A program made the translations under genes and the position numbers. A stretch of DNA of 64,000 nucleotides. Origin: an uncultured Planctomycetales bacterium (GTDB lineage Bacteria > Omnitrophota > Gorgyraeia > Zapsychrales > Fredricksoniimonadaceae). The stretch covers positions 128,770-192,769 of the forward strand of contig CAZFNI010000002.1 in assembly GCA_964520655.1 (NCBI GenBank), read 5' to 3'. The notes under the pieces were generated by a model, which was not told where the DNA came from, made no database searches, and was given only the letters and a program-made list of their open reading frames with translations. The number at the start of each line of letters is the position of its first letter. The stretch's first letter is position 1. Of this stretch, positions 1,077 through 20,029 are shown one piece after another.

Positions 1077-1092
1077 GTTAAACAATTCATTA

Positions 1093-3850: not shown

Positions 3851-3985
3851 ATTTTATCCTGCAAGCTCGCCGCGGAAGGCTTTGGCTAAATAGCCAATCG
3901 GCCTTATAGTTTTTATACTGCCACTAGTTAACAGAACGTGATCAATTTGTTAGAATAGGGCTCGTAACCGAAAGGAGCCTTATTC

Positions 3986-4261
3986 ATGAAATACCGACAA
4001 TGGACCAGCAAACAAAAATCACAGATCGTACTTGAGGGCCTCTCCGGACAGATCGACATCACCAAACTATGCCAGAAATACCAAGTCTCGCAAGCGCAGT
4101 ATTACAAATGGCGCGACGCTTTCCTGGTCAACTGCCACCAGTCCTTTGAAGTCAAAAAACAGTCACAAAAAGAACAATATCTGGAAGGCAAAGTTCAAAA
4201 ACTGACCAAGATTATCGGAGATCTGACCATTGAGTTAAAAAAAAGCGAATACGAGCTATGA
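3986..4261 (+). CDS. IS3-family transposase OrfA (HTH)
   Basis: 91 aa; MKYRQWTSKQKSQIV...YYKWRDAF is typical of IS3/IS911 OrfA; its TGA overlaps the ATG of orfB (ATGA). Confidence 0.85.
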   Translation: MKYRQWTSKQKSQIVLEGLSGQIDITKLCQKYQVSQAQYYKWRDAFLVNCHQSFEVKKQSQKEQYLEGKVQKLTKIIGDLTIELKKSEYEL

Positions 4262-5046
4262 AACGAACCCGCGCCCAATCAACCATACAAAGAGACCTGG
4301 AACTGCTGGCCGTCATCAATCCGATCAAAACCGACCATCCCCTCTGGGGGTATCGTCGTGTCTGGGCGTATTTAAAATACCGCCAGAATTATTCCGTCGC
4401 CATTAATCGCGTGTATCGTATTATGAAAGAGCATCAAATGATCGTCACCAAACTTCAACGGTTACGCGCTCGACGCGGCCCCATGCGCTCAAAGCCACGA
4501 TCACATCAGCCCAACCACTTTTGGGGTATCGACATGACCAAGATAAAAATCTATCCCTGGGGCTGGCTGTATCTGTGTATCGTTCTCGATTGGTGCACCA
4601 AAGAAATCGTTGGTTATTCGTTAAGCATTCAGTCCAAAACCGATGACTGGTTATCAGCCGTTGAAATGGCCGTCAATAACCGATTCCCTAACGGCATCAA
4701 ATCCGATTTAAAAAAACAGTTGTTCTTGATCTCAGATAACGGCTGTCAGCCGACATCCCAGCGGTTCATGATGAACTGTTCGCTTTTGGGCATCAAACAA
4801 ATCTTTACAACTTGGTCTAATCCCAAAGGCAATTCCGACACCGAACGCGTCATGCGAACACTCAAAGAGGACCTGGTCTGGACCTATGACTGGGATAATC
4901 CCTTCGCCTTCAGCGAAGCCTTGAGAAACTGGATCGTCGCTTACAATACCGACTATCCCCATCAGTCCTTAAATAACATGACGCCGACGCAGTATTACGA
5001 ACAATTTAACAAAGAACCCGTTCTAACAAATTTTTCCCTTGCTTAA
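4258..5046 (+). CDS. IS3-family transposase OrfB (DDE integrase core)
   Basis: 262 aa; rve-type integrase catalytic core (WGIDMTKI..., LISDNGCQPTS, ...E). Confidence 0.85.
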   Translation: MKRTRAQSTIQRDLELLAVINPIKTDHPLWGYRRVWAYLKYRQNYSVAINRVYRIMKEHQMIVTKLQRLRARRGPMRSKPRSHQPNHFWGIDMTKIKIYPWGWLYLCIVLDWCTKEIVGYSLSIQSKTDDWLSAVEMAVNNRFPNGIKSDLKKQLFLISDNGCQPTSQRFMMNCSLLGIKQIFTTWSNPKGNSDTERVMRTLKEDLVWTYDWDNPFAFSEALRNWIVAYNTDYPHQSLNNMTPTQYYEQFNKEPVLTNFSLA

Positions 5047-5063
5047 GTAGTGGCATTACATTT

Positions 5064-6542
5064 TTACTTCCTCAATTTCTCAATAATCCCCTTAAAACTT
5101 TCCAACCCTGCTTCGATATTCTCAATAATCTCAACCGCAAGTACATCTGGATCGGGGAGATTGTCGAGATCAGTTAAGCTTTTATCCTTAAGCCAGAAAA
5201 TATCGAGGCTGGTCTTATCCCGGGCGACGATCTGGTCATAATTAAACTTACGCCAACGGCCTTCGGGATTTTTCTCCGACCATGTTTCCTTACGCTTGTG
5301 GCGGTTGGCTGGGTTATAACACTCACTGAACTCTTTAAGATCTTCAAACTTCAATGTATTCTTCTTAAGTGTGAAATGTATATTCGTCCGGAAGTCGTAA
5401 ATCCACACTTCTTTGGTTTGCGCGTTCTTGCTTGCTGGCCGATTATCAAAAAAAATGACATTTGCTTTCACTCCCGGCTTATAAAAAATCCCCGTCGGTA
5501 AGCGTAGAATGGTATGCAGGTCAGTTGTTTCTAAAAGCTTCTTACGCACGGTCTCACCCGCACCTCCCTCAAAAAGAACGTTATCGGGCACAACAACCCC
5601 AGCCTTACCATCAACTTTAAGCATGGTGTGGATATGCTGGACAAAATTGAGTTGCTTATTTGAAGTTGTCGCCCAAAAATCCTGACGATTATAGACAAGA
5701 TCTTCAGATTCTTCTTCACCTTCCTCATTAGTAAAGGTCATACTGCTTTTTTTACCAAATGGCGGATTCGTTAAAACATAGTCAAATCGCAGACCATTGT
5801 CCGCAATTAAGGCATCTGATCGCTCAACCGGTGGTAAATTGTCAAGATCGCCTATGTTATGCAAAAATAAATTCATCAAACACAAACGTGCTGTACTCTG
5901 TACAATCTCCCATCCTTTAAAAGTCTTAAATTTTAAGAATTGAAGTTCTTCTTTATTAAGTTGATAGTTATTTTTATTGGTAATGAAGTCGTAGACCGCA
6001 AGAAAAAAACCACCCGTTCCACATGCTGGATCAGCAATCATCTTTTCAGGTTCGGGGCGCATACATTCAACAATGGCTCGAATCAATGCACGAGGAGTAA
6101 AATACTGCCCTGCACCGCTTTTTGTATCCTCAGCATTTTTCTCAAGCAAACCTTCATAAATATCACCTTTAATATCTGCCCCTATCTTGACCCACATTTC
6201 TTGATCAATCATCTGGACAATACGGTAAAGCTTTGCTGGGTCGGTAATTTTATTTTGTGACTTAAAGAAAATCTTGCCGAGCATTCCGCTTTTCTGACCA
6301 AATTCACGTAAAAGCGTGACATAGTGCGTCTCAAGTTCTGCCCCACGCTTGCTGACCAATGTTTCCCAGCGATATTCCTTAGGAATATCCATTTTGCGAT
6401 TATAAGGCGGCTTTGAATATTCATCAGCCATCTTAAGAAACAACAAATATGTCAATTGCTCCAAATAATCGCCATATCCCACGCCATCATCTTTAAGCAC
6501 ATTACAAAACGACCAAACTTTTGATACCAATGCCTCAGTCAT
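5064..6542 (-). CDS. hsdM: Type I restriction-modification N6-adenine DNA methyltransferase subunit
   Basis: HsdM N-terminal domain (VWSFCNVLKDDGVGYGDYLEQLTYLLFLKMADE) and NPPFG catalytic motif; overlaps hsdS by 8 nt. Confidence 0.9.
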   Translation of the reverse strand: MTEALVSKVWSFCNVLKDDGVGYGDYLEQLTYLLFLKMADEYSKPPYNRKMDIPKEYRWETLVSKRGAELETHYVTLLREFGQKSGMLGKIFFKSQNKITDPAKLYRIVQMIDQEMWVKIGADIKGDIYEGLLEKNAEDTKSGAGQYFTPRALIRAIVECMRPEPEKMIADPACGTGGFFLAVYDFITNKNNYQLNKEELQFLKFKTFKGWEIVQSTARLCLMNLFLHNIGDLDNLPPVERSDALIADNGLRFDYVLTNPPFGKKSSMTFTNEEGEEESEDLVYNRQDFWATTSNKQLNFVQHIHTMLKVDGKAGVVVPDNVLFEGGAGETVRKKLLETTDLHTILRLPTGIFYKPGVKANVIFFDNRPASKNAQTKEVWIYDFRTNIHFTLKKNTLKFEDLKEFSECYNPANRHKRKETWSEKNPEGRWRKFNYDQIVARDKTSLDIFWLKDKSLTDLDNLPDPDVLAVEIIENIEAGLESFKGIIEKLRK

Positions 6543-7893
6543 GCTTCTTTTTTCCTTTCGACTTAACCTCTAAAGCTTCTTTTTCAGCTTTTATCCTTTG
6601 GAGCAAGGCCTTGGCTGAATTATCACCGGATGTTAAATTTTTGTGTTCTTTACGCCATTGCTCCGTTAAGTTGCCTTCAAATGCCTTCTTTAAAACACTC
6701 TGTCGAAGGACTTCGGCTTTTTGTATACTTTCATTAATGGTTAATTCAAGAGAATCGCAAAACGAAAAACGAGATTCTACATCCTCAACTATTTTTAACT
6801 GATCTTCCAAAGAACAAAAAGGAATTAGCAGATCTTTAATCTCTTCAGAATTAATATTATGAACTCCACTTGTCGATTTCGCTTTGCCTTCAATCTGATT
6901 CCTTAATTGTGGCGAAGATAGAATATACTGTAAATAATAGCTATTCAGATTTGATTTTAGCCTAAGCCGTATTAGATAACCTGCATACAGAGCATGAGTA
7001 TCTTTCTTGGTTACAATAGCTGTTTTACCTACGAGAGAAACACTGCCGTTAGAACGAATCATCAGCAAATCGCCTTCTATAAGTGAATATTTATTCACTT
7101 CATCATTAGTAAAATAAGCATACTTTAAATCAGACAGGTCAATATATTGACTCCCAATATTCGGTATTCTTAAAACAGCTTTCCCGATAGAATCTTTTCT
7201 ACATTTACGTGCCGTCCCATATTTAGGTTGTTCAATAAAATTTCCAAATTTTACAAAATCCTTCCCTATTGCTATTTGGTTTAACACCGAATAACGATAA
7301 ACTTTCAACTGCTCTTTAGCTTTTTTAAAATTTTCGATGGCGTTGTCGAGATCGGAAAAAAATTCTTCGATTACAGAAATTATGCGTTCTTGCTCGGCTG
7401 TAGGGGCAATTAATATTGGAATCACATTTACTTTTGATAAAGGGATTGAGGGCAAGGTGGTAGCATGAGCAATGTGATTGAAGTCAACTGTCTTAAGCCA
7501 ATAATATATCCAGTCACTTAAAATACCATCGTAGGGCATGGCAATTGCGATATGACTGACAACATACATATCCGTCTTTAATACTGCTCTTTGATTTAAT
7601 AGGCTTGATGCACCACTTTTAGTAAATAGAACCGTCCCCTTTGGAAAAAGTTTCATTCTTTCAATAGCACTATGATTAATGCGATCAGCTGTATCCATAA
7701 TATATTTACTTATCCCTAATCGCCCCATATCTTGGACACGGACAAAAGGATATGTGCCGTTATCGAAAAATTGATTTCCTTGAGGAGCAGGATTACCTGC
7801 ACCCAATTTTGTAATATTTCCAAGAGGAGCTTGTGCCCAATTTTCAGGAAGCATACTTCGATCATCTAATAAAACTGTTGAATTCTTTTTCAA
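6535..7893 (-). CDS. hsdS: Type I restriction-modification specificity subunit with two target-recognition domains
   Basis: 452 aa with two TRD-like halves separated by a coiled-coil conserved region; sits between hsdR and hsdM with 4-8 nt overlaps. Confidence 0.85.
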   Translation of the reverse strand: MKKNSTVLLDDRSMLPENWAQAPLGNITKLGAGNPAPQGNQFFDNGTYPFVRVQDMGRLGISKYIMDTADRINHSAIERMKLFPKGTVLFTKSGASSLLNQRAVLKTDMYVVSHIAIAMPYDGILSDWIYYWLKTVDFNHIAHATTLPSIPLSKVNVIPILIAPTAEQERIISVIEEFFSDLDNAIENFKKAKEQLKVYRYSVLNQIAIGKDFVKFGNFIEQPKYGTARKCRKDSIGKAVLRIPNIGSQYIDLSDLKYAYFTNDEVNKYSLIEGDLLMIRSNGSVSLVGKTAIVTKKDTHALYAGYLIRLRLKSNLNSYYLQYILSSPQLRNQIEGKAKSTSGVHNINSEEIKDLLIPFCSLEDQLKIVEDVESRFSFCDSLELTINESIQKAEVLRQSVLKKAFEGNLTEQWRKEHKNLTSGDNSAKALLQRIKAEKEALEVKSKGKKKHD

Positions 7894-10634
7894 GCTACCA
7901 GCACCTCGTTTAATTCTTCAATTAACTTGTCTGCCTCATCACCAAAAAGCTCATGGAGTTTTCCAAGTCCACCACGGTCGCCAAATGGCGACAACTCAAA
8001 GTCGTCTTTCTCAATATGAAATGACGTGGCAATGTGATCACGAATCATATAAAGCCATTCCATCTGCTCTTTTGTGAAATGCTTATGCCCTGATTGCGCG
8101 TGGACAACCCAATCACGAAAATTCCGACGTGCTATGGCATCGTAATCAGATAGTTTTTTATCTATGTTGACAATACGGCGAATAAGCCCCACTAAAGCCG
8201 TCAACTCACTCTTGGGGTTTTCGCTCACGTTCTCCAAATGCGCATACGCATCCCAAACCCGAAGCGGTGCTAAATTTGGTTTCTTCTCGCGCAATGTTTC
8301 AAAGACTTCCTTGATCATCTTGTAGGTTATTTCTCGCCTACGAAACGGCTGACTGTAAAAAATAACCAGCGCTTGAATCTCATCTTTATGTTGCTCAAGA
8401 AAACTTTTAAAATCCTGAATCAAACTTTGCGCTTGGTCTTTGGCCTGCTGATCCCACCCTGCGAAGGTAACACGGTCAATATTGACAGTATCAATGATCT
8501 GCTCAAAAGAGCGACGAACGGTTTCAATATATTCGTTGAGAGGTCCGTTAAAAATACTGCTAGCTTGTTTTGATAACTCTTCTTTAGCGCGTTTAAGTTT
8601 TTCATCTTGTGAAATATCAATAGTAGAGAAAAGTTGTCCTGCCTTTTCCTCAATACGATCCGGGTTATGTGCATCAAGTAGACCATTCACAACAGCACCT
8701 AAAGGCATTCCACCGGACAATTCTTTTATTTTCTGACGTTCTTTATCTTTAATCTGACGATCCATGCGCGTTAAACGATTTGCCAACGATAGAAAAGTAT
8801 CTTCATCCCGGGCGCCCATCATAACGGCATTAAGCAAATCTTTAAGTGGAACGGCGCTCTTACGTTCAAGAGGACGACTGTCGGTTTTAAGTGACTTTGT
8901 AACTCCAACAGCATCAACAACGACAAAATGATCTTTTTCATATTTTGCAGAGGGTGTAACTCTCCTAAGATCATCTAATCCAAGAGTTCTTGTTCCGCGG
9001 CCTTTCATTTGTTCAAAATAATTAGCAGAGCGCACGTCGCGCATAAAAAGTAAGCATTCTAAAGGCTTCACGTCTGTGCCGGTTGCGATCATATCTACAG
9101 TGACAGCGATGCGTGGATTGTATGAGTTTCTAAACTGAGCAAGCAAGGTATCGCCATCTTCTTCAGCTTTATAGGTAATCTTTTTACAGAAATCATTTCC
9201 TTCGGCAAACTCTTCCCGCACAATCTCGATAATATCGTCGGCGTGGCTGTCGGTCTTTGCAAAAATTAAAGTCTTAGGAACTTCTTTACGGCCGGGGAAT
9301 AACTCAGGCAACTTATTTTTAAATGTTTTAATAACATTACGAATTTGGCTTGGATTGACTACACTACGATCCAAATCTTTTCCAGAGTATTTGATTTCTT
9401 CATCCGTCTGTTCCCAGCGTTTTTTGCGAGTCAACCGTTCTCTCACATCCACAAATTCTTTGGCCTGAATGGTTCCTCCCTGCTGTGTTCGTTCTGTATC
9501 AATGATATAAACGTTGAATCCCACATTAACCCCGTCGGCGACAGCGCGTTCGTGTGGATATTCACTGACAACATTCTCTTTGAAGAAACCAAAGGTACGT
9601 TTATCAGGAGTTGCTGTCAATCCGATTAAGAAAGCATCAAAATAATCCAACACCTGTTGCCACAGGTTATAAATTGAGCGGTGACATTCATCGATGACAA
9701 TAAAATCAAAAAACTCAAGCGGAACCTTTTCGTTGTAAATTACAGGCATCGGTGCTTTTGGCTGCCATACTTCATTGGGATTAACCTCTTCAGCAGATTC
9801 GTCAAGCTCATCCCCTTTTAAAATCGAATAAAGACGCTGAATAGTACTAATACACACTTGACTGTCTTTTGAAACATAGCTCGACTTCAACCTCTGGACA
9901 TTATAGAGTTCAGTGAATTTACGATTGTCGTCGTTTGGTGTATATGCCATGAATTCCTGCTCAGCTTGTTTGCCGAGGTTTCTTGTATCAACGAGAAAAA
10001 GCACTCGTTTGGCCTTTGCAAATTTAAGCAGACGGTAAATGGAAGTAATGGCGGTAAAAGTCTTTCCACTTCCCGTTGCCATCTGAATAAGTGCTCGGGG
10101 GTAATTGTCTCTAAAAGATTTCTCAAGATTCCTGATGGCTTTAATCTGGCAGTCACGCAGACCTTTTTCATCAAGAACAGGTATATCTTGAAACCTTGCC
10201 CGTAATGTTTTTGGAGTCGCAAGCCATTCTTTAAATGTTTCTGGTTTGTGAAAAGAAAATACTTGGCGCGCTCGAGGTTTTGGATCGCTGAAATCGGTGA
10301 ATCGAGTTATTTCACCAGTGCTTTCATAAACATAACTAAGCGGAGCGTTATTGACATATTTAAGCTGTGCCAAAGCATATGCTTCAGCTTGTGCCTCGTG
10401 GACAGTTAGACGATGGCCCTCTTCCTCTCGCTTAGCTTCAATAACACCGACTGGTTTGCGGTCAACAAAAAGGACATAATCAACAGGGCCAATGTCGGTT
10501 GGATACTCCCGAACAGCAATGCCTAGTCCAGCATTAAAGTTCAATGCTTTTCTGTCTTGTACTTTCCATCCAGACTGAATAAGCAAGTCATCAATTTTAT
10601 CGCGGGCTATTTGTTCAGGGTTTTGATTTACCAT
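7890..10634 (-). CDS. hsdR: Type I restriction enzyme R (endonuclease/helicase) subunit
   Basis: HsdR N-terminal nuclease domain (...DLLIQSGWKV...DYVLF...), SF2 helicase Walker A MATGSGKTFT and DECHRS box, long helical C-terminus. Confidence 0.85.
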   Translation of the reverse strand: MVNQNPEQIARDKIDDLLIQSGWKVQDRKALNFNAGLGIAVREYPTDIGPVDYVLFVDRKPVGVIEAKREEEGHRLTVHEAQAEAYALAQLKYVNNAPLSYVYESTGEITRFTDFSDPKPRARQVFSFHKPETFKEWLATPKTLRARFQDIPVLDEKGLRDCQIKAIRNLEKSFRDNYPRALIQMATGSGKTFTAITSIYRLLKFAKAKRVLFLVDTRNLGKQAEQEFMAYTPNDDNRKFTELYNVQRLKSSYVSKDSQVCISTIQRLYSILKGDELDESAEEVNPNEVWQPKAPMPVIYNEKVPLEFFDFIVIDECHRSIYNLWQQVLDYFDAFLIGLTATPDKRTFGFFKENVVSEYPHERAVADGVNVGFNVYIIDTERTQQGGTIQAKEFVDVRERLTRKKRWEQTDEEIKYSGKDLDRSVVNPSQIRNVIKTFKNKLPELFPGRKEVPKTLIFAKTDSHADDIIEIVREEFAEGNDFCKKITYKAEEDGDTLLAQFRNSYNPRIAVTVDMIATGTDVKPLECLLFMRDVRSANYFEQMKGRGTRTLGLDDLRRVTPSAKYEKDHFVVVDAVGVTKSLKTDSRPLERKSAVPLKDLLNAVMMGARDEDTFLSLANRLTRMDRQIKDKERQKIKELSGGMPLGAVVNGLLDAHNPDRIEEKAGQLFSTIDISQDEKLKRAKEELSKQASSIFNGPLNEYIETVRRSFEQIIDTVNIDRVTFAGWDQQAKDQAQSLIQDFKSFLEQHKDEIQALVIFYSQPFRRREITYKMIKEVFETLREKKPNLAPLRVWDAYAHLENVSENPKSELTALVGLIRRIVNIDKKLSDYDAIARRNFRDWVVHAQSGHKHFTKEQMEWLYMIRDHIATSFHIEKDDFELSPFGDRGGLGKLHELFGDEADKLIEELNEVLVA

Positions 10635-10636
10635 AT

Positions 10637-11353
10637 TTATTCCATTTTTCCTTCATCAGCAAAACTGAAAAAATTATCACCGCCGATAATAATATGATCC
10701 TGCACTTTTATTTCCATTAGCTTCCCAGCATCACAGAGTTCTTTGGTAAATTTCTTATCTTGGGCGCTAGGCGCAGTTTCTCCGCTGGGATGGTTATGAA
10801 CACAAACGATTGATTTGGCGAATTTCTGTAAAGCGGTGTGAATTATTTCGCGGATAATTGGAAAGGCATGATCGACCGTTCCAACAGCGGCATCGGAAAT
10901 ATCTATGATTCGATTATTGTTATCAAGATAGACAACCTTAAAGACTTCGGTCTTAAGGTCGCGCATGTGGGGCAAAACGATGTCAACAATGTCTTTGGCG
11001 GAAGCGATTTTCTGCTTGCCCGGCGACACAACATCCTGCTGATAGCGCCGCCCGATCTCAAGCGCGGCCTGAATGTGGGCAATCTTAGCACCACCTAAAC
11101 CTTTGAATTCCTTCCAATCGCGGGTGTCGGTATGGGCCATGCTCCTGAAGGAGCCGAATTTACTCAGGATTTTGCGGGAAAGCTCCACGGCGCTGGTTCC
11201 GGCCGTGCCGGTGCGCAACAAAATAGCCAAGAGTTCTGAATTGCTTAAAGCACCCGCGCCTTTCTTGAGCAATTTCTCTCTTGGCCTGTCATCCAGCGGC
11301 CATGATTTGATGCCTGATAATTTTAAATTTTTCGTCACGTTTTCTGAACCCAA
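10637..11353 (-). CDS. radC: RadC-like JAB/MPN domain protein (UPF0758)
   Basis: LSNSELLAILLRTGT... helix-hairpin-helix region and JAMM motif HNHPSG; 3 nt after the hsdR stop. Confidence 0.8.
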   Translation of the reverse strand: MGSENVTKNLKLSGIKSWPLDDRPREKLLKKGAGALSNSELLAILLRTGTAGTSAVELSRKILSKFGSFRSMAHTDTRDWKEFKGLGGAKIAHIQAALEIGRRYQQDVVSPGKQKIASAKDIVDIVLPHMRDLKTEVFKVVYLDNNNRIIDISDAAVGTVDHAFPIIREIIHTALQKFAKSIVCVHNHPSGETAPSAQDKKFTKELCDAGKLMEIKVQDHIIIGGDNFFSFADEGKME

Positions 11354-11470
11354 TTCTTCCTAAAAAAGCGTCTGTTTTAATTCTGTGATAGCTACCCACC
11401 CCTCACTCGTATTAAAAATCTTATAACCTACATAACTCCAAATATTTATACTGAAATAACATCATCATTT

Positions 11471-11502
11471 TTGTCACAAAAAGCATATACTTTTTGTGAC
11501 AA
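11471..11502. promoter_or_regulatory. Perfect palindrome TTGTCACAAAAAG-CATATA-CTTTTTGTGACAA (13-bp arms); candidate operator/terminator at the distal boundary of the AbiE cassette
   Basis: Seen directly. Lies 14 bp past the phosphoesterase stop and ~120 bp upstream of the radC start. A near-identical palindrome sits at 13699-13728 on the other side of the cassette. Confidence 0.4.
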
Positions 11503-11515
11503 GATTTGGCACCAT

Positions 11516-12052
11516 CTAGTTAACCTTACCCTGCTTTTCTTCCTTCAGAAAATCAGAAATAGCAGAGGTGATCTGTTTAAAAGCGATCGGATAAAAATCC
11601 CAAACATCAACAGACAGATTGACAATCAAAGATTTTTTATCCAGCCGTTTCACCTTGTAATGCTGATGCACATGGCCGCAGAAATTCCAAGGCACCGATA
11701 GATCAGCATCTTCCGGCTTATGAATCATACAAATATCTTTAGCGCCATAATGGATATACATCTTTGTTATGATCGCATTGAGACTGTTGTTACGGTCATG
11801 ATTACCTTTAATGAATATGAACTTGCCGTTTAGCCTCTTTTCAAAGTTCAGGGCTCTCTGCTCTCCGCCTTCTTTTCCGCCTTTAAAAATAAAATCACCC
11901 AGAAAAAACACAGTATCCTCAGACTTAACCCGCTCATTGTGTTTGCGGATAATCGTTTCATTCATTTCCTCAACCGTTGCGAAAGGCCTGCCGCAATAGC
12001 GAATTATATTGAAATGTGAAAAATGATAATCGGATGCCCACCAACAATTCAT
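11516..12052 (-). CDS. Small calcineurin-like metallophosphoesterase
   Basis: 178 aa with phosphoesterase motifs SDYHFSH, LGDFIFKGG and GNHD; 3 nt after the AbiEii stop, same strand. Confidence 0.65.
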   Translation of the reverse strand: MNCWWASDYHFSHFNIIRYCGRPFATVEEMNETIIRKHNERVKSEDTVFFLGDFIFKGGKEGGEQRALNFEKRLNGKFIFIKGNHDRNNSLNAIITKMYIHYGAKDICMIHKPEDADLSVPWNFCGHVHQHYKVKRLDKKSLIVNLSVDVWDFYPIAFKQITSAISDFLKEEKQGKVN

Positions 12053-12054
12053 GA

Positions 12055-13128
12055 TCAGATCCTGTTAATTTTTTCTTCAATGATCCTCAGTTCTTCTATA
12101 ATGCGCTCAAATGATGGCGGCTCCTCAAAAAACATTTGTTGCATCTGACGGTAATCATTCTTTAATTGGCTCATTTGATCATCGCGAGGCAATAACCGCA
12201 AACCTCCCGGCTTTGCAGTGTCATAATGCGCCCAGTTCGCTTTAAAAAATAAAGTTTTATGATCCGCAACAGACTTAAGCAATGAAATATTTTCCAAAGC
12301 GCGTTTATAAATAGGTGAATCCGCCAGCGCGTATATGTCGTAATAATGCCGCGACATCCGTAGTGGTACATTCTTCTCAGGCGGATAATGATAAATCATA
12401 TGCAAGATCGTTGCTTTCTCCCAGAAAGTCCGCTCTGCGGCTAAAACACGTACAGAAGCCCCTTCAATGGCCGTCTCACCTGAAACATTGGTGACATACG
12501 GAGAAATGGTCGCGGTTTCAACTGGCCAATGATCGGATCGTGCGCCGAATTCAATTTTGACCGATGATCGCACATAGCTTTCCGCATTACTCGTCATGGC
12601 ATGAGGGAAAATAAACAAAACTGTTTGTCCGTCCTCATCTTCTGAATCCACTTCAATCTTCCACTCCTCTTTGGCACCCAGAACCGCCGTAACCGCTTGC
12701 CTTAAAGCAGGAAGAATTGTTTGATCAATGCTCTTCTTACAAACCAGTTGTAATTTTTCAAGCCGTTTCTGATTCTCTTTATTGCTTTCTTCTTTATCCG
12801 GCTCAATCGCTTCGGACTTCAATAAAAAAGGCCTCTCTATTGAAATGTCAATGTCCTCTGAAAAACGTTTAATCACGTTATAGCATTTTGAAAGGGATGT
12901 CCCTCCTTTAAATGTCAAATGCTCGCCTATTTTTGGTAATGAAAAAAGGATTTTGAGTATCCAGCACACCCAGAAATCCTTTTCGACTAATTGCGGCATG
13001 ATATTTAAATTAGCCGCAGTCACTTCAAAATAAGCGCGTTTATCTTTGTGCGGTAATAATGCGAATTTATTCATAAACTTCTCATTCTTGTAATTGCCGA
13101 AATATCGTTCCAATCCATGCGGGGGCAT
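12055..13128 (-). CDS. abiEii: AbiEii/AbiGii-family nucleotidyltransferase toxin (DUF1814)
   Basis: FKGGTSLSKCY...RFSEDIDISI nucleotidyltransferase motif typical of AbiEii; overlaps the upstream AbiEi-like gene. Confidence 0.75.
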   Translation of the reverse strand: MPPHGLERYFGNYKNEKFMNKFALLPHKDKRAYFEVTAANLNIMPQLVEKDFWVCWILKILFSLPKIGEHLTFKGGTSLSKCYNVIKRFSEDIDISIERPFLLKSEAIEPDKEESNKENQKRLEKLQLVCKKSIDQTILPALRQAVTAVLGAKEEWKIEVDSEDEDGQTVLFIFPHAMTSNAESYVRSSVKIEFGARSDHWPVETATISPYVTNVSGETAIEGASVRVLAAERTFWEKATILHMIYHYPPEKNVPLRMSRHYYDIYALADSPIYKRALENISLLKSVADHKTLFFKANWAHYDTAKPGGLRLLPRDDQMSQLKNDYRQMQQMFFEEPPSFERIIEELRIIEEKINRI

Positions 13129-13681
13129 AACGAAGGTCAGCGATCAGCTCGCGCTTATCATCCTTGGTTAATCTCTTTCTAAGTATTTCAATTGTTTTAT
13201 CACTCACGTGATCTTTGCCTAAATACCGCAAGGCTTGAATAACTAAACCGCTAACATGCCCCGCGGTAGCCATATTCTTGGGTGTGGTTCTTTTTAAAAC
13301 AATTTGCTGATTTTTGATCTGCACCTTACGATTAGCGCCGTCTGTCAAAAAAATAATTCTTGCCGGTACCTGCTCGGTCAAGCCCAGCAGATTAGCGGCA
13401 TATGCTCCGGAAGGCTGAATTTTCAGATTATCCCTTCCTGCCAATGCTTGAGCAAGACGGTCATAATTCGCAGGCAGATCTCCCAAAACAGGATGTTTTT
13501 CTGGGTAGTCATACAAACCGCGAGCAAGTCGGCGAATTGTTCCAGAATCTGCCAAACGTTCCAAAGCTTTGGCCACGGCGGAGCGGTTTCCGAGGTCAAG
13601 AAAGTGAGTTGAGGTGAACACCCAACCCCTTCTTCTTCCATAAATTTTACTAACTACTCTATTATAAATGCTTTGCGTCAT
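13082..13681 (-). CDS. abiEi: AbiEi-like antitoxin / transcriptional regulator (type IV TA)
   Basis: 199 aa; N-terminal winged-HTH-like region (GWVFTSTHFLDLGNRSAVAKALERLADSGTIRRLARGLY) and the characteristic pairing with AbiEii. Confidence 0.7.
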   Translation of the reverse strand: MTQSIYNRVVSKIYGRRRGWVFTSTHFLDLGNRSAVAKALERLADSGTIRRLARGLYDYPEKHPVLGDLPANYDRLAQALAGRDNLKIQPSGAYAANLLGLTEQVPARIIFLTDGANRKVQIKNQQIVLKRTTPKNMATAGHVSGLVIQALRYLGKDHVSDKTIEILRKRLTKDDKRELIADLRYAPAWIGTIFRQLQE

Positions 13682-13698
13682 TTATATCACCTCTTATT

Positions 13699-13728
13699 TG
13701 TCGCAAAAAGTATATAGTTTTTGCGACA
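13699..13728. promoter_or_regulatory. Palindrome TGTCGCAAAAA-N8-TTTTTGCGACA, 18-47 bp upstream of the abiEi start; candidate AbiEi autoregulatory operator
   Basis: Seen directly; consensus shared with 11471-11502: TGTC(A/G)CAAAAA...TTTTTG(T/C)GACA. Confidence 0.45.
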
Positions 13729-14117
13729 TACTGTCAAGCCATTTTTAGGAGAGGAATCGACGAAAATAACATTCTTTAATGTTCATTAAATAGTGAACAT
13801 TGGCACAAGCTGAACATTCGCAAGGGGCATTTCAATGGCGCAAAAAGTGGATAGTTTCTGTGGACACATTTATGTCAATTCATGTCACTCAAAAACAGCC
13901 TTTTTGACCACCGCAGGAGCATGTAGAATGCCTCTAAATACGCCTATTCTCCGTCCAGAAACGATTGTTTTTACCATTCTGAATAAGATTGCCACGGATG
14001 CCGATTTGAGTGACATTGACATCAATTTTTTGGGCCATAATCACTGACAACCTGCGCCTCGCCCGACCCGCATCCCCACACCCCCCCTGGAAGGACCCGT
14101 AAACAAAAAACCTATTT

Positions 14118-15248
14118 CTATTTATTGTTCCCTACCGGCCATAAAATATCATAATGAACACTGCGTCCCTTGCCGGACAATTGGCGCAATAACTTTTTCT
14201 CAAGCATGTCCGAAATCTCACGAAACGCGGTCGCCCTGCTAGTGCTTGCCAAGCTCACATATTTGCGGGTTGTTAATCCTCCGACAAATTCACCTTGCCC
14301 TTCATCCAACATACGGTTAAGGACTTTCTTTTGACGCTCATTAATCTCGGTCTGCGCATGTTGTGCCCAAAAATCCGCCTTGAGCAATACTTTACCAATA
14401 ATTTTATCAGACCTTTGAATAGTACGTTGATAGCACCCTAAGAACCAAAGAAGCCAGTTCGTCAAATCCAGATTGTCAGCCTTGGAACATTTTTCAAGAA
14501 TTTTATAATAACTGTCCCTTTCTTCCATGATCTGCGATGAGAAACTATAATATCGCACCTTAAGCTTTTCGTCCTGCGCCAAGGCCATATCTGTTAGACT
14601 CCGTGCAATGCGCCCATTACCATCTTCGAAAGGATGGATTGTCAAAAAATAAAAATGCGCTATCCCTGCACGCAAAAGTCCATCTGTGGTTGTGAAGCTC
14701 GCCTTCCACCATTGAAAGAATTTCCGCATTTCGGCTTCAACGGCTTCTCCCGGAGGCGCTTCAAAATGAACCCGTTCACGCCCCATAGGCCCAGACACAA
14801 CACGCATCGGCTCTTGGCCTCTCCATTGACCTACGCGAATCTTATGAAGTCCCGAGTAGCCTGTTGGAAAAAGCGCCCCATGCCAACCTTGTAATCGATC
14901 CCTATTAAGGGTCTTAGCGTAATTTTGAGTGGCATCCAGAATAATCTCAACGATGCCATCGACAGATCTGGATGATCGTCCTAGCCCAACTGTGGGAAGA
15001 CCCAAATGTCTTGCGACAGATGATCGCACCATTTGAAGATTAAGTAGTTCCCCCTCGATTTCCGATGTCTTAATGACTTCCTCAATTAAAATATCAGCTT
15101 GTGCCTCTTCTTCAAGCTTAAACCCCAATCGCTTAACGCGACCCAATAGATCACCCTGAGCAAGCCTCGCCTGTCCCAAAATCGACAAAAGGGTATTGCT
15201 GTCCCATGTGAATTCCGGCCAAGAATGATGTTGCCATATGTATTTCAT
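14118..15248 (-). CDS. Fic/DOC family protein (putative AMPylator)
   Basis: Canonical Fic motif HPFEDGNGRIARSL inside FYFLTIHPFEDGNGR. Confidence 0.85.
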   Translation of the reverse strand: MKYIWQHHSWPEFTWDSNTLLSILGQARLAQGDLLGRVKRLGFKLEEEAQADILIEEVIKTSEIEGELLNLQMVRSSVARHLGLPTVGLGRSSRSVDGIVEIILDATQNYAKTLNRDRLQGWHGALFPTGYSGLHKIRVGQWRGQEPMRVVSGPMGRERVHFEAPPGEAVEAEMRKFFQWWKASFTTTDGLLRAGIAHFYFLTIHPFEDGNGRIARSLTDMALAQDEKLKVRYYSFSSQIMEERDSYYKILEKCSKADNLDLTNWLLWFLGCYQRTIQRSDKIIGKVLLKADFWAQHAQTEINERQKKVLNRMLDEGQGEFVGGLTTRKYVSLASTSRATAFREISDMLEKKLLRQLSGKGRSVHYDILWPVGNNK

Positions 15249-15432
15249 TAATACCTCCTGAAGCGATTAAGCCTCATAATCGCTTCACTATATGAGGCAA
15301 TTATACTATTTAATCGCATCAATAACAAATTATTTTTTTATTTTAAAGGTGAGATAAAGAAGGGTTAATCAATACCAACAACAGCCTCAATAAGCTCCTG
15401 CATGGTGCGTCTATATTGTGGCCAATGGCCAC

Positions 15433-15625
15433 CCATATGTCTCCAAAAAGACCTTCAAAATTTACCTCCTAGAAAAGACATATAGATAGTGCCGTTTCCA
15501 CAGTTTCTAATATAAATTGACGTCCAGCCATATGTTTCTAAAAACACTTTCACAAACTTCTCCTAGTATAAATAGTGCCAGGTTCTATTTAATCGTGCGC
15601 TGTCCCCTATTTTTCAACCACCAGT
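15433..15625. repeat. Two tandem ~95-bp degenerate repeat units in AT-rich intergenic DNA; third partial copy at 16713-16762
   Basis: CCATATGTCTCCAAAAAGACCTTCAAAATTTACCTCCTAG...ATAGTGCCGTTTCC (15433-15527) versus CCATATGTTTCTAAAAACACTTTCACAAACTTCTCCTAG...ATAGTGCCAGGTTC (15528-~15625). Confidence 0.5.
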
Positions 15626-15769
15626 AAAGTATTTCCAACAATCTTTAACTAAAGCAATTATTCCCCATCCACATATCCCCCATATAAAATACTTCAAATA
15701 ATTACAGGTTTCTGCTATTTCAGCTAAATGCCTCTCAATTTGTTGAAGTGTATATTGTTTATCATCCAT
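15614..15769 (-). CDS. 51-aa peptide with a C-terminal transmembrane helix
   Basis: GGAGG is 6 nt upstream of the ATG (complement at 15767-15769). MDDKQYTLQQIERHLAEIAETCNYLKYFIWGICGWGIIALVKDCWKYFTGG; begins 14 nt after the stop of the 284-aa gene. Confidence 0.35.
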   Translation of the reverse strand: MDDKQYTLQQIERHLAEIAETCNYLKYFIWGICGWGIIALVKDCWKYFTGG

Positions 15770-15783
15770 ATAAACCTCCATTC

Positions 15784-16638
15784 TCATTGACTCTCTAGAT
15801 ACCCCTTCAATTTCCACTGTTCCAAAATATAGACTTTAAATCCCTCCACTGGTTTACTTCCACATATTCGAGCCAATTCCTCTCCTGTTTTTGTAAGCAA
15901 CACATTTCCAATATTCATTTCATTCTCTTTATCTTTAGACATTTTACACTCAACAATTTGTCCATAATATGCCACCTTAAAACTCTTAGGTAGCTTGGTT
16001 CTTAAAAAACCTGCTATTGCATTAAATTGAATCAATCCAATACTGTCCAAATGCGTCAAAGTATTAAAATTAATCCCATTCTTAATATAAATTTCATTAT
16101 GTTCATCATAAACAAGAGGAACTATATTCCCTATATGCCATCCAAAACCACAAAGTTTTGTAAATAAAATTGCATCACCCTTATCTAGGTCAGATAGAAA
16201 ATTAACAGTTCGTTTAGAGAAACTACCTGGCGAATTAGCTTCTCCTGCAAGGATACGAGACCATAACGATTGCATTTCTATATCAGATATAATTCTGCAT
16301 TTATCAAAAAAATTAGTTAGCCAATCTACTTCAATTTTATCCGGGCTAGAATCTTCCTTTAGCTGTGGCAAGGATTGTTCTACAATTTGTTCCATGATTA
16401 ATTGTTTTTTTGCCTCTTCTTCAATAAATCGCCTTACAGCTCTCTGTTGAAGCTCTGCAACTTGAATTATTCCTTGAGTTTTTATTAAATTTGCTTCAAC
16501 TTCTGCTTTAGCTATTCTTTTAATCTGGTACGGCCTAAACAATCCTCCAACTGCTTCAGAAACCTTCTCAATCAAAGTATTTGCAGGCTTAGAATAGTCG
16601 CCCAAATTTATAAGTGCTTTTGAAGTTTCGTCGCTCAT
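15784..16638 (-). CDS. Uncharacterised 284-aa soluble protein, resembles DUF2806-type defence-island proteins
   Basis: Complete ORF in an AT-rich block; segments LIEKVSEAVGGLFRPYQIKRIAKAEVEA and SLWSRILAGEANSPGSFSKRTVNFL resemble what I recall of DUF2806. No catalytic motif recognised. Confidence 0.45.
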   Translation of the reverse strand: MSDETSKALINLGDYSKPANTLIEKVSEAVGGLFRPYQIKRIAKAEVEANLIKTQGIIQVAELQQRAVRRFIEEEAKKQLIMEQIVEQSLPQLKEDSSPDKIEVDWLTNFFDKCRIISDIEMQSLWSRILAGEANSPGSFSKRTVNFLSDLDKGDAILFTKLCGFGWHIGNIVPLVYDEHNEIYIKNGINFNTLTHLDSIGLIQFNAIAGFLRTKLPKSFKVAYYGQIVECKMSKDKENEMNIGNVLLTKTGEELARICGSKPVEGFKVYILEQWKLKGYLESQ

Positions 16639-16712
16639 AACCTTCTCAAATTATTTATTGATAGCAAATTCTTCTTAGAAATTCTACCAAAGTCAGCAGC
16701 CAATGCTTCCAT

Positions 16713-16762
16713 CGGCCAACCGTAGGTTTCTAAAAATACTTTCAGAATTTAGTCCTCACAGT
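16713..16762. repeat. Third copy of the intergenic repeat (GGCCAACCGTAGGTTTCTAAAAATACTTTCAGAATTTAGTCCTCACAG)
   Basis: Aligns with the 15433/15528 units; sits upstream (minus strand) of the 284-aa gene. Confidence 0.45.
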
Positions 16763-17424
16763 ACATTTGTTTTGCAATTATTAAAATTCCTAAATGCTAA
16801 ATCATTTACCGAGATCCAAACACCATAAAACAAACACATTAAATTAAGAAGAAATATAACAGACAAATAAAAAGTTATTTTAATAGCAAGCAATAAATAA
16901 ATTTTAATAAACAAATAAATCCCCAACATCACAAACAAAGACAGAACTGCAAGAACAACAAAGACTGCAAACGGCACAAACATAAGCCATATCAATTTTT
17001 TTCGAAATTCAATTCTTGATTTTAGATAATCGTAATAGTCCTTCAAAGCATTCTTATATAAAGACAAATTCTTTCGATCCCTTTCCTTAAAAGATTCAAT
17101 GTTATCAAACACATCTTTCTCTAACCAGCTATTAGGCTCTCTATCCACTTTAAGTACTTGCATTAAATATGCTTTTTCTTTGGGATCAACTAAAGGATGT
17201 TCAATACGATATATAATCCAATTTCTAAATCGGTTATAGGAATCAGTTAAATCTGTTGAAATAGCCTGCATGCGAAATAAACCAAAAACACCTGACACAG
17301 TCGCAAACGTAGCTGAAAGCATAAGTAATCCAGAATAATACCCATTAAAAATGCTTATCAATTCCTTTGCTTCTAAAATTCTTAAATAATTATAAACACT
17401 GCAATAACATATAAATGAACACAT
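16756..17424 (-). CDS. Uncharacterised membrane protein (N-terminal TM, central soluble segment, two C-terminal TM helices)
   Basis: Hydrophobic stretches LLMLSATFATVSGVFGLF and LIWLMFVPFAVFVVLAVLSLFVMLGIYLFIKIYLLLAI; AT-rich codon usage unlike the flanking genes. Confidence 0.45.
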   Translation of the reverse strand: MCSFICYCSVYNYLRILEAKELISIFNGYYSGLLMLSATFATVSGVFGLFRMQAISTDLTDSYNRFRNWIIYRIEHPLVDPKEKAYLMQVLKVDREPNSWLEKDVFDNIESFKERDRKNLSLYKNALKDYYDYLKSRIEFRKKLIWLMFVPFAVFVVLAVLSLFVMLGIYLFIKIYLLLAIKITFYLSVIFLLNLMCLFYGVWISVNDLAFRNFNNCKTNVL

Positions 17425-17458
17425 ATAGTGAAAACCTTATTAAATTAAAGACAGCTCC

Positions 17459-17860
17459 CTATTTCTTAAATAACGATGAATACTTAGCCCAATACCCGCT
17501 CATGGAGAATACCTGCAATAAAACCATCGAAAGCGGGAGAACTAAATTGTTCACGCCGGGCGTCAAACAACCATGGAATAATAGAATATGCAAGGTAACC
17601 GGTGCAATAACAACCAGTGCCAGCGGCGCTGCTAGGCCGGTTAAGAGCATCAGTCCGCATATGACTTCCGTCATCTTTAATAAAGGGAAGAAATATCCCG
17701 TTGCCATGATCCCCTTCATAAAATCCATCGCCGCTTGCGGCATGGCCTGATCCTGCGGCATCGGCATAAGCCCAAAAGCAATGGCCAGCCCCATGCCTCC
17801 AAAAACAGCATAGATCAATCCTAAAATAATTCGTGCGGCTAATTGAACTTTAGTTATCAT
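17459..17860 (-). CDS. DoxX-family membrane protein
   Basis: 133 aa, four TM segments with DoxX-like pattern (RIILGLIYAVFGGMGLAIAFGL). Confidence 0.75.
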   Translation of the reverse strand: MITKVQLAARIILGLIYAVFGGMGLAIAFGLMPMPQDQAMPQAAMDFMKGIMATGYFFPLLKMTEVICGLMLLTGLAAPLALVVIAPVTLHILLFHGCLTPGVNNLVLPLSMVLLQVFSMSGYWAKYSSLFKK

Positions 17861-17910
17861 GTCGATCTCCTTCTCTTAATAATTAGGGACAGCCCCCTAT
17901 TTCATAAAAA

Positions 17911-18583: not shown

Positions 18584-19075
18584 CTATTTCTTTTTCTTAA
18601 CCACTTTTTTCTTCACGGCGGCTTTCTTTGTCGCCGCAGCTTTTTTCTTTCCCTTAACCGCAACGGATTTAGTATCCTTAGCCTCAACCGGCGCTTGAAC
18701 CGGGGCTGCCGGGATCACGGCTTGATTAACTTTAGGAGCATTGCCTGACTTACGCAACGCAAAACATTCCGCGCAATACACCGGTCGGCCAGGCGTGGGT
18801 TTGAACGGAAGTTCACTGTCTTTTCCGCACTGAAAACAAACGATCGCATACTTAGGACGCGTATTCTGCGGCTGTGTCGGCCGCGAGGGCGCAGCAGGTA
18901 TTGTTTGGGCTGGACGCGCCGCCGCTGCTTTTTGCATGGCCAACGTCTGGGCTAGATCCGTTAACGATTTATTCATAAAATCGTCAAATTTATTGTTAAG
19001 GACAGCCAACTGCTCCTGGATCTGGACAAGAACTTTCTCAATATCGACATGTTGCGTTGATCTTTTCTTCATCAT
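18584..19075 (-). CDS. Hypothetical protein with CxxC...CxxC zinc-ribbon and poly-lysine C-terminal tail
   Basis: CFQCGKDSELPFKPTPGRPVYCAEC followed by KGKKKAAATKKAAVKKKVVKKKK. Confidence 0.5.
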   Translation of the reverse strand: MMKKRSTQHVDIEKVLVQIQEQLAVLNNKFDDFMNKSLTDLAQTLAMQKAAAARPAQTIPAAPSRPTQPQNTRPKYAIVCFQCGKDSELPFKPTPGRPVYCAECFALRKSGNAPKVNQAVIPAAPVQAPVEAKDTKSVAVKGKKKAAATKKAAVKKKVVKKKK

Positions 19076-19279: not shown

Positions 19280-20029
19280 TTAAGCCAAATGCTTTCTTTT
19301 AAGCAACATTCCGAACAATCCGCCACCTAGCAACACTAGAGATGCAGGTTCTGGGACTGGAGAAGCTGTTGTTTCAAAAGGAGTCACCTTAACTGACCAA
19401 TTATCAATACCGCTTGATGTCCCACCATCAACAACCCCAGGAAGACTCATGCCGGTAGTAGCCAGATAACCAAATGTGATCGGATCGCCGGATGCCGAGA
19501 AATCAAGCGTATTGGGACCGCCTGCAGTATTAATAAAATCAGCAGCCGTTAATCCAGAAAAAGAAAATGGGTCCCACGTTGTTCCCGCAAGGCCATCACC
19601 TGGTCCTTGAGCCAATCCAACAAACGAAAGACCAGGTCCTGAATGATAGACAGAGCCGGACTGCTCCAAAGCCAATCGGTAACCAACAACACTGGTTCCA
19701 CTCGTTCCGCCTAAGAATTTCAGATCAAACGAAAAGTCTATGGCAGAAATACCACCTGAAACACCCGGATCATAAACAGCCGTTGTGTTCTTATCCACCA
19801 CGATAATGCTTTGGAACGAATTCAGGCCTGAAACATTCATTTGACGAAATTCATTCGGGTTACCGCCAGCGGGTGTTTGAAAAGAAGAAAAACTGCCGCT
19901 GAGGAACTTCTGCCCGATCCAATGAGAATCGCTAAAAACCCCATCAGAAAACACCACTGATGCCCAAGAATTGCTGGTCAAGGCAATAAATACAAAAACC
20001 GTTAAAACAAACAATTTCATTTGCTGCAT
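19280..20029 (-). CDS. PEP-CTERM sorting-domain secreted protein
   Basis: Signal peptide; C-terminal VPEPASLVLLGGGLFGMLLKRKHLA (PEP motif, TM helix, basic tail). Confidence 0.8.
   Translation of the reverse strand: MQQMKLFVLTVFVFIALTSNSWASVVFSDGVFSDSHWIGQKFLSGSFSSFQTPAGGNPNEFRQMNVSGLNSFQSIIVVDKNTTAVYDPGVSGGISAIDFSFDLKFLGGTSGTSVVGYRLALEQSGSVYHSGPGLSFVGLAQGPGDGLAGTTWDPFSFSGLTAADFINTAGGPNTLDFSASGDPITFGYLATTGMSLPGVVDGGTSSGIDNWSVKVTPFETTASPVPEPASLVLLGGGLFGMLLKRKHLA

Follow-up and report, generated by a model that had tools for sequence, protein, structure and literature searches.

Does the AT-rich DNA at positions 15250-17450 of the window analysed here (the whole stretch of 64 kb taken from contig CAZFNI010000002.1 of an uncultured Planctomycetales bacterium) encode a single defence system, or does it unite genes that arrived independently? 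The block carries open reading frames (ORFs) for a soluble protein of 284 amino acids (aa) with a DUF2806 domain, for a small peptide of 51 or 57 aa and for a 222-aa membrane protein. A preliminary description made from the letters of the DNA had taken the three for a novel system in which a soluble sensor works with two membrane effectors. We come to a different answer, which we consider likely: the block would be a mosaic of independent insertions at a hotspot, in which a stand-alone DUF2806 gene of the Belisama/Abi-alpha kind resides on a cassette delimited by scars of a miaB-like gene, next to an unrelated resident encoding the 222-aa protein, and not one system.

The three ORFs exist; their coordinates were checked (Table 1) and all of them lie on the minus strand. 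On the coding strand they follow each other in the order 222 aa, 284 aa and 51/57 aa. The preliminary description had the 51-aa ORF correctly placed 14 nucleotides (nt) past the 284-aa stop, but it put the 222-aa gene last, which is in fact the first and most upstream of the three. The sharp drop in guanine-cytosine (GC) content that it reported is real, as the value of 0.325 at 15250-17450 is the minimum of all 2.2-kb segments scanned over the whole 64 kb, on which the GC comparisons are based (mean 0.450, standard deviation 0.041). For single genes, GC amounts to 0.29 (222-aa gene) and 0.34 (DUF2806 gene) versus 0.455 for the neighbouring Fic and 0.458 for DoxX. Matches to Pfam and PADLOC also bear out the flanking genes that had been named, DoxX and GST on one side and a SoFic-like Fic gene on the other, and the neighbourhood includes AbiE, the SoFic-like Fic, a type I restriction-modification (R-M) system and a Gabija-like pair. 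The view of the block as foreign-looking AT-rich DNA within a defence island is supported.

Direct repeats resembling the start of a miaB-like gene

Three direct repeats (family D1; scars A, B and C in Table 1) cut the block into separate cassettes, a feature that was overlooked when the region was treated as a single block. Read on the coding strand, the repeat consists of a Shine-Dalgarno (SD) site, one of the codons CTG, GTG or TTG, and AAR GTN TTT TTR GAR ACN TAY GGN TGG, that is KVFLETYGW. This codon pattern is matched three times in the window, compared with 0.01 matches expected. The copies differ pairwise by 4, 7 and 5 nt, and as all of these differences are synonymous and fall on third codon positions, the copies must have diverged as coding sequence. 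A counterpart is found in the related metagenomic locus L084, where the intact gene for a MiaB-like protein (UPF0004-radical SAM-TRAM) starts with TTG AAT AAA GTA TTT TTA GAA ACC TAC GGC TGC CAA ATG AAC. Scar A is nearly identical to this true miaB start, and the repeats break exactly at the codon for a conserved Cys of the miaB-like gene (TGY to TGG). By this correspondence, the repeats of the window come from the 5' end of a miaB-like gene and have been displaced from it. The window also contains, at 28839-30101 on the minus strand, a gene for a UPF0004/radical-SAM methylthiotransferase, a paralogue that is 29% identical to the MiaB-like protein of L084 and is not the target of the scars.

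The three scars are embedded in different reading frames. Scar B is part of a 32-codon ORF (15553 to 15455) and scar C of one with 15 codons (15458 to 15411). Scar A runs into a chimeric leader ORF that ends on the start of the DUF2806 gene (Table 1). In the window this leader could start only at CTG or ATT, with no ATG, GTG or TTG available, which makes it doubtful that it is translated; the DUF2806 gene probably depends on a GAGAAGG site of its own.

Reading the KVFLETYGW repeats as functional small peptides, either regulatory leaders or peptide precursors, instead of scars would agree with the SD-like site in front of each copy, with the GTG or TTG starts of two of them, with small-ORF stops that overlap the next start (TTGA, ATGA) and with a peptide that is perfectly conserved while the DNA varies only synonymously. 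We nevertheless hold this to be very improbable, as KVFLETYGW is the N-terminus of the miaB-like enzyme, in which the next codon specifies the conserved Cys, as the copies in related genomes always occur upstream of an intact miaB, on the same strand, with a fixed break and varied arms, and as scar A lacks a canonical start codon.

Two further sequence similarities were noted around the scars. Positions 15423-15449 in scar C and 17779-17805 in DoxX (codons ~17-25) share a 27-nt match of 85% (TTTTTGGAG.CATA/GGGG.TGGCCATTG), which is probably due to chance. The motif AAATAGGG(G/A)(G/A)C(A/T)G(T/C) occurs three times on the minus strand of the window (0.13 expected), right after the GST stop (17888-17902), over the DoxX stop (17450-17464) and after the stop of the small ORF (15598-15612). 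It may represent a further boundary or a terminator motif; no significant RNA structure was found at these sites.

The same scars in related genomes

Of 80 metagenomic loci with relatives of the MiaB-like protein from L084, the closest ones have extra copies of the miaB 5' end upstream of the intact gene and on the same strand: L095, L096 and L098 (one each), L102 (two) and L133 (three). The genes enclosed between the copies vary: a DUF4160 and DUF2442 pair in L095, a 203-aa unknown in L098, unknowns of 136, 161 and 335 aa together with Fic in L102, and in L133 a stretch leading from Fic via a metallophosphatase to AbiEii as well as a DUF4379 zinc-finger protein. The position of the junction is fixed between TAYGGNTG and the following G in the window and in L095, L096, L102, L133, L176 and L179-L184; the scar in L098 reads TGA at that codon.

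The arm GCC(A/G)TTGGCCACA(A/G)TATAGACGCA, from which Fic is separated by ~180 nt, has one and the same fusion point, to the nucleotide, in four distinct host versions of the miaB start, namely KVFLETYG in the window, KVFVETYG in L133, KIYLSTYG in L176 and TIFIETYG in L179-L184. The Fic proteins behind this shared arm are 93-97% identical across genomes, and in L181 two scars bracket Fic in a unit of 1.67 kb. Scar A has an arm (W PMEALAADFGRISKK) with a homologue in L102 (scar L102b, W VMDALSADFGKISKG; WVMDALSADFGKISKG) that precedes different cargo, and both leaders end in an ATGA overlap with the following gene. We considered local duplication as the origin of the repeats and rejected it: a shared arm on differing host 5' ends, the bracketed Fic of L181 and the reuse of an arm with other cargo together argue for site-specific insertion. 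Site-specific recombination as the mechanism, and likewise the order of the insertions, we infer from the junctions.

The left end of the Fic island is conserved in four genomes (window 15249-15469, L133 784-990, L176 ~6990-7205, L179-L184), with ~85% identity between the window and L133. It holds a conserved palindrome (15259-15321 in the window) and, just before Fic, a near-consensus promoter, TTGTTA-17-TATAAT. Palindrome and promoter together probably constitute an autoregulated promoter/operator.

Proposed assembly of the array

As the scars bracket the DUF2806 gene together with the small ORF, and as the same scars enclose varied cargo elsewhere, the two ORFs appear to make up one integrase-less cassette in a defence-island hotspot. 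According to our model, this cassette of ~1.2 kb, with the 57-aa ORF coupled to the DUF2806 gene, would lie between displaced copies of the miaB-like 5' end (~10 codons), the attL/attR-like scars that site-specific insertion would have left at the start of that gene. Every new element would supply its own SD site, start codon and first codons, whereby the target gene would be rebuilt, and the former miaB 5' end would be pushed upstream on each insertion. Repeated insertions could thus have produced the array 222-aa gene, scar A, DUF2806 gene with 57-aa ORF, scar B, 95-nt remnant, scar C and finally the island that extends from Fic and AbiE to the type I R-M system and the Gabija-like pair. For the excised DUF2806 cassette an attP junction with the sequence ...GAAACATATGGCTG joined to GCCGATGGAAGC... 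is predicted, and the form in which scars would be expected at related miaB genes is GARACNTAYGGNTGG. Beyond the left edge of the window, where the island should end, the model further predicts an intact miaB-like gene that begins with an SD site, a start codon and K(V/I)F(L/I)ETYGCQMNEYD, perhaps accompanied by a tyrosine or serine recombinase.

A more far-reaching proposal, which we put forward only tentatively and believe to be less probable than its opposite, sees in the miaB 5' repeats the marks of a hitherto undescribed, integron-like capture system made up of tiny integrase-less cassettes (0.1-6 kb) with an attP-like leader and moved by a recombinase acting in trans. The leader would consist of an SD site, a start codon, ~10 miaB codons and a conserved arm, would rebuild miaB and would sometimes be coupled to the cargo. 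The array, stacked by the recombinase at the start of the miaB-like gene, would serve to stockpile defence and toxin-antitoxin genes. The DUF2806 gene and the 57-aa ORF would then form one such cassette, with the 57-aa peptide as a membrane partner that is specific to the lineage and times lysis.

The DUF2806 protein and its relatives

The 284-aa protein matches Pfam DUF2806 (PF10987) with residues 65-269 over nearly the full profile (1-218 of 221; E 5.2e-39; 134.8 bits at a cut-off of 24.5 bits for this hidden Markov model, HMM), which confirms a resemblance named in the preliminary description. There are 3560 homologues, the best 120 of which are about 56-67% identical. In an alignment of 25 relatives, each of which matches Pfam DUF2806, mean column identity is 52% and every family-invariant residue is present in the 284-aa protein. 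With one representative genome per species, 268 genome stretches encode relatives. The best 80 of them (53-63% identical), which we used for neighbourhood analysis, span many bacterial phyla and also archaea, a distribution that carries the signature of rampant horizontal transfer. Mobile elements carry homologues as well: conjugative IncX4 plasmids in their backbone (38% identity), Legionella plasmids (42%) and a temperate Sinorhizobium phage. In nine gammaproteobacterial loci (L016, L026, L037, L040, L049, L051, L059, L060 and L062, from Neptuniibacter, Alteromonas, Shewanella, Zobellella, Cellvibrio, Marinomonas and others), with proteins 56-60% identical to that of the window, the DUF2806 stop is situated inside an attC-like site (CCTAACAAG ... 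GGCGTTA), where it contributes to the R'' box. These copies are hence tightly packed integron cassettes.

DUF2806 has an experimentally characterized member. Belisama is a DUF2806 protein from a cassette of the Vibrio cholerae chromosomal integron that protects at low multiplicity of infection, leads to strong and unrecoverable culture lysis at high multiplicity and is toxic upon overexpression (Darracq et al., bioRxiv 10.1101/2024.07.02.601686). All systems of that study except Sucellos and Toutatis are single-gene, and Belisama is hence a single-gene system; its homology to Abi-alpha was noted there, and homologues were reported from 70 genera of Pseudomonadota (bioRxiv 10.1101/2024.07.02.601686). 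The published criterion for homology to the Belisama protein of V. cholerae N16961 is blastp E < 1e-5 with coverage >= 50%. Meanwhile DefenseFinder has a Belisama type, and a Desulfovibrio prophage has been found to carry the system (PMC12724379). Abi-alpha (EF2833) from prophage 6 of Enterococcus faecalis V583 is a single-protein abortive-infection (Abi) system that acts by premature lysis (Lossouarn et al., 2019, PMC6356687), and its authors already pointed out its similarity to PF10987 (PMC6356687). In our data, Pfam Abi_alpha (PF14337) matches nine of 25 close homologues of the 284-aa protein (best E 1.8e-9), and one homologue, P0002 (399 aa), is annotated as both DUF2806 and Abi_alpha. 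The latter protein shows an internal duplication of ~110 residues, with the helical core repeated. These matches are consistent with DUF2806 being remotely related to Abi-alpha. Novelty of the system is not supported, given that Belisama, a published system of one gene, has this same domain and that the family is related to Abi-alpha.

Taken together, the 284-aa protein is most likely a stand-alone abortive-infection effector-sensor that would cause premature lysis or death upon infection. By homology, it would be idle until certain phages infect and would then lyse or kill the infected cell prematurely, with no release of phage progeny. An anti-phage function of the copy in the window is suggested by the family to which it belongs. 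The presence of homologues in the backbone of a conjugative plasmid and in a temperate phage, in a family without known mechanism and without PADLOC model, could also be taken to point at a role other than defence, for example in maintenance or exclusion of mobile elements, with the position in a defence island resulting from hitch-hiking. We think this improbable given the direct experimental anti-phage phenotypes of Belisama and the related Abi-alpha and the fact that DUF2806 genes here and elsewhere have defence and toxin-antitoxin genes as neighbours.

The 222-aa membrane protein

For the 222-aa protein, only one close homologue was found (P0122, 62% identity), and an HMMER scan of 1.84 billion representatives returned only 15 proteins at E <= 0.001, the query included. 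Their shared motifs (FYS..AQS.AALF, FREW, EP.SWL.KDV, AL.DY and INNP.TN) mark them as a real but tiny membrane-protein family. In L084, a 218-aa homologue is encoded next to a 238-aa protein (7142-8530) and followed by the MiaB-like gene, with no DUF2806 present. The 238-aa partner is fused to a domain of the 222-aa family in P0131, and no known domains were found in the module. Probably, the 222-aa gene is what survives of a membrane module of two genes, the 238-aa partner being missing in the window.

These data bear directly on the proposed three-gene system of one soluble sensor and a pair of membrane effectors. In its favour one can cite the common strand, tight spacing and shared low GC of the three ORFs, their defence-island setting and the fact that no terminator is predicted between them. 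We give it next to no credence. The conserved trio that had been anticipated did not emerge from the survey, because tblastn with the 222-aa, 51-aa and leader peptides found nothing in the 80 DUF2806 loci, and the trio does not occur together in any other locus examined. The supposed tie between the 222-aa and DUF2806 genes is severed by scar A, which separates the two, and by the sole close homologue of the 222-aa protein, which adjoins a 238-aa protein and an intact miaB. Nor is the 51-aa ORF supported as a conserved part, as it is an orphan limited to the source species. What endures from the preliminary description is the defence-island setting, the foreign look and the anti-phage family of the DUF2806 protein, whereas novelty, trio and shared system are not supported. 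The 222-aa gene is an unrelated resident of the hotspot and not part of the DUF2806 unit.

The small ORF behind the DUF2806 gene

The small ORF can be read in two ways. The internal ATG at 15769 is preceded by GGAGG at a distance of 5 nt, and the alternative ATG at 15787 overlaps the TGA stop of the DUF2806 gene (ATGA) and yields 57 aa. On metagenome contigs the ORF has been called with 57 aa (L001) and 67 aa (L003). The hydrophobic stretch of the peptide spans only ~15-17 residues (YFIWGICGWGIIALV). Among 5.8 billion proteins the small ORF has matches only within the same species, and a positional scan of the 80 loci revealed no recurring small membrane or hydrophobic ORF after the DUF2806 stop. 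The closest homologues of the 284-aa protein (66-67%, metagenomic) have other neighbours: Cupin and an MNT/HEPN pair after the gene, a convergent PEP-CTERM gene after it, or HipBA before it. No conserved DUF2806 neighbour was found in the 80 genome loci or beside these closest metagenomic homologues. The 57-aa ORF is an orphan restricted to the source species and translationally coupled to the DUF2806 gene; that it has taken on an accessory role specific to this lineage is rather unlikely.

A related option is a two-gene unit in which the DUF2806 protein cooperates with the coupled 57-aa membrane peptide as a holin-like effector, as an anchor or as an antidote restraining a toxic Abi protein. 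Both ORFs lie within one cassette from scar A to scar B, the start of the 57-aa ORF overlaps the DUF2806 stop while its second start has a GGAGG, and a membrane partner would fit the reported toxicity of overexpressed Belisama and the lytic action of Belisama and Abi-alpha. We regard such a unit as doubtful in view of a peptide with no homologue outside the source species, the absence of a comparable downstream ORF in the 80 genome loci and beside the closest homologues, a hydrophobic segment as short as ~15 residues and the reported single-gene nature of Belisama.

Points against independent insertions and a Belisama-like gene

Several observations weigh against the mosaic with a stand-alone Belisama/Abi-alpha-type gene that we prefer. 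Neither an integrase nor a recombinase is found among the annotated ORFs of positions 1-21.6 kb of the window, and none was seen within 10 kb on either side of miaB in L102 and L133. The intact miaB orthologue is not within the 64-kb window, in which the end of the array is not reached. As to the DUF2806 protein, its assignment as a relative of Belisama is drawn from the common Pfam family, the strong conservation within the clade and the integron-cassette context. The 284-aa protein itself has no match to the Abi_alpha HMM at E <= 1, and PADLOC-DB 2.0 (2023) holds no model that matches it. Its structure model is of moderate confidence (predicted local distance difference test, pLDDT, 66.6) and matched no solved fold, so no mechanism can be read from structure. 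Lastly, the tight ATGA coupling and the shared cassette leave some limited room for a two-gene unit peculiar to this lineage.

Defence island and flanking genes

Positions 3-15248 form one long defence island with all genes on the minus strand except for IS3 (Table 1). Beyond GST on the other side, the genes for a zinc-finger protein and for a protein with a PEP-CTERM-like C-terminus look like core genes.

Table 1. Coordinates of scars, genes and other features in the 64-kb window
Feature	Position	Strand	Remarks
DUF2779	3-1076	-	Runs off the window
UvrD-like helicase	1093-2208	-	First gene of Gabija-like pair (Pfam only)
AAA_15/OLD-TOPRIM ATPase	2195-3850	-	Second gene of Gabija-like pair (Pfam only)
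IS3 transposase	3986-5046	+	
Type I R-M, hsdM/hsdS/hsdR	5064-10634	-	
RadC	10637-11353	-	
Metallophosphatase	11516-12052	-	
AbiEii/AbiEi	12055-13681	-	
SoFic-like Fic (DUF4172+Fic)	14118..15248	-	PADLOC SoFic 1.8e-43; first gene of the next larger island, outside the block
Scar C	15426-15469	-	SD, TTG, KVFLETYGW, arm PLATI and stop; attL-like left end of the Fic island
Scar B	15521-15564	-	SD, GTG, KVFLETYGW; attR-like right end of the DUF2806 cassette, joined to what is left of a further cassette (95 nt)
57-aa ORF	15787 to 15614	-	51 aa if started at internal ATG 15769
284-aa DUF2806 gene	16638 to 15784	-	Candidate for single-protein abortive infection of Belisama/Abi-alpha type
Chimeric leader ORF	16635..16745	-	36 codons, LKVFLETYGW-PMEALAADFGRISKKNLLSINNLRRL and stop; TGA overlaps DUF2806 ATG (ATGA)
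Scar A	16713-16756	-	Displaced miaB-like 5' end (core 16742 to 16716, KVFLETYGW) and cassette arm; attL-like left end of the DUF2806 cassette
222-aa helical membrane protein gene	17424 to 16756	-	Tiny uncharacterised family
Lysine-rich protein, treble-clef zinc finger (zf_Tbcl_2)	18584-19075	-	Beyond GST
Protein with PEP-CTERM-like C-terminus	19280-20029	-	VPEP..., hydrophobic stretch, basic residues; by eye

Taken by itself, the DUF2806 gene of the window changes little: it adds one taxonomically distant copy to the DUF2806/Belisama/Abi-alpha defence family. It also shows that a highly conserved gene of this family spreads on its own among phyla of bacteria and archaea, with integron cassettes, plasmids and phages as vehicles and here, as it seems, a different kind of mini-cassette. 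Its surroundings are of greater use. The miaB 5' hotspot appears to gather small integrase-less units in several uncultured lineages. As its attL-like junctions are clean, it marks out a site at which new defence genes can be sought, and several of the cargo genes at the scars match no known family. The 222-aa/238-aa membrane pair is likewise a candidate for mining, as a possible unexplored defence or membrane system. Which recombinase moves the units at the miaB hotspot is a tractable question.

Comparison with known systems

At first sight, the three ORFs recall pairs of sensor and membrane effector in abortive infection such as RexAB and Sucellos. The resemblance is superficial and consists only in a soluble protein beside small membrane proteins. 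We rejected the analogy, as there is neither sequence nor structural similarity and the genes do not co-occur.

With regard to the mode of insertion, dusA-specific islands come closest. On insertion they substitute a new 5' end of dusA for the old one, of which a remnant stays behind, and the MiaB-like rimO of Polaromonas has been cited as another 5'-end target of islands (Farrugia et al., 2015, PMC4482086). Such islands and the window have in common an insertion in the first codons of the target, a 5' end that is supplied by the element and an old end that is left as a direct repeat on the far side, and in the window direct repeats of the target's 5' end indeed bound the inserted DNA and break at a fixed position. 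The array of the window differs from dusA-specific islands in its miaB-like target, in the lack of an integrase beside the target in the loci examined and in units that can measure as little as 0.1-1.7 kb, several of which are stacked.

Integron cassette arrays share with the window small, mostly promoterless units in the same orientation, variable cargo rich in defence and toxin-antitoxin functions and conserved short ends, and the coupled short leader ORF resembles ORF-11 in attI1. Integrons possess intI and attC hairpins (RYYYAAC...GTTRRRY), whereas in the window the repeated site is taken from a housekeeping gene, namely its coding 5' end; no intI was found among the annotated ORFs at 1-21.6 kb, and the repeats correspond to miaB coding 5' ends and not to attC hairpins.

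As to the cargo, Abi-alpha resembles the 284-aa protein as a single protein of ~270 aa, and its premature lysis is reminiscent of that exerted by Belisama. It differs from the window protein in being prophage-borne in Firmicutes and in belonging to a Pfam family whose HMM the window protein misses. The similarity to Belisama is more extensive and comprises DUF2806 across the protein, a similarly small size, and a gene that is carried alone on a small mobile cassette, in surroundings rich in defence genes. Belisama sits on an integron cassette with attC, in contrast to the window cassette with its bounds of miaB 5' scars, its coupled orphan 57-aa ORF and its different lineage. By eye, no attC-like site was seen flanking the DUF2806 gene of the window, for which no dedicated attC scan was made. 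Flanking attC sites describe where Belisama was found rather than what Belisama is, and the integron-cassette homologues from Gammaproteobacteria link the window protein to the setting of Belisama.

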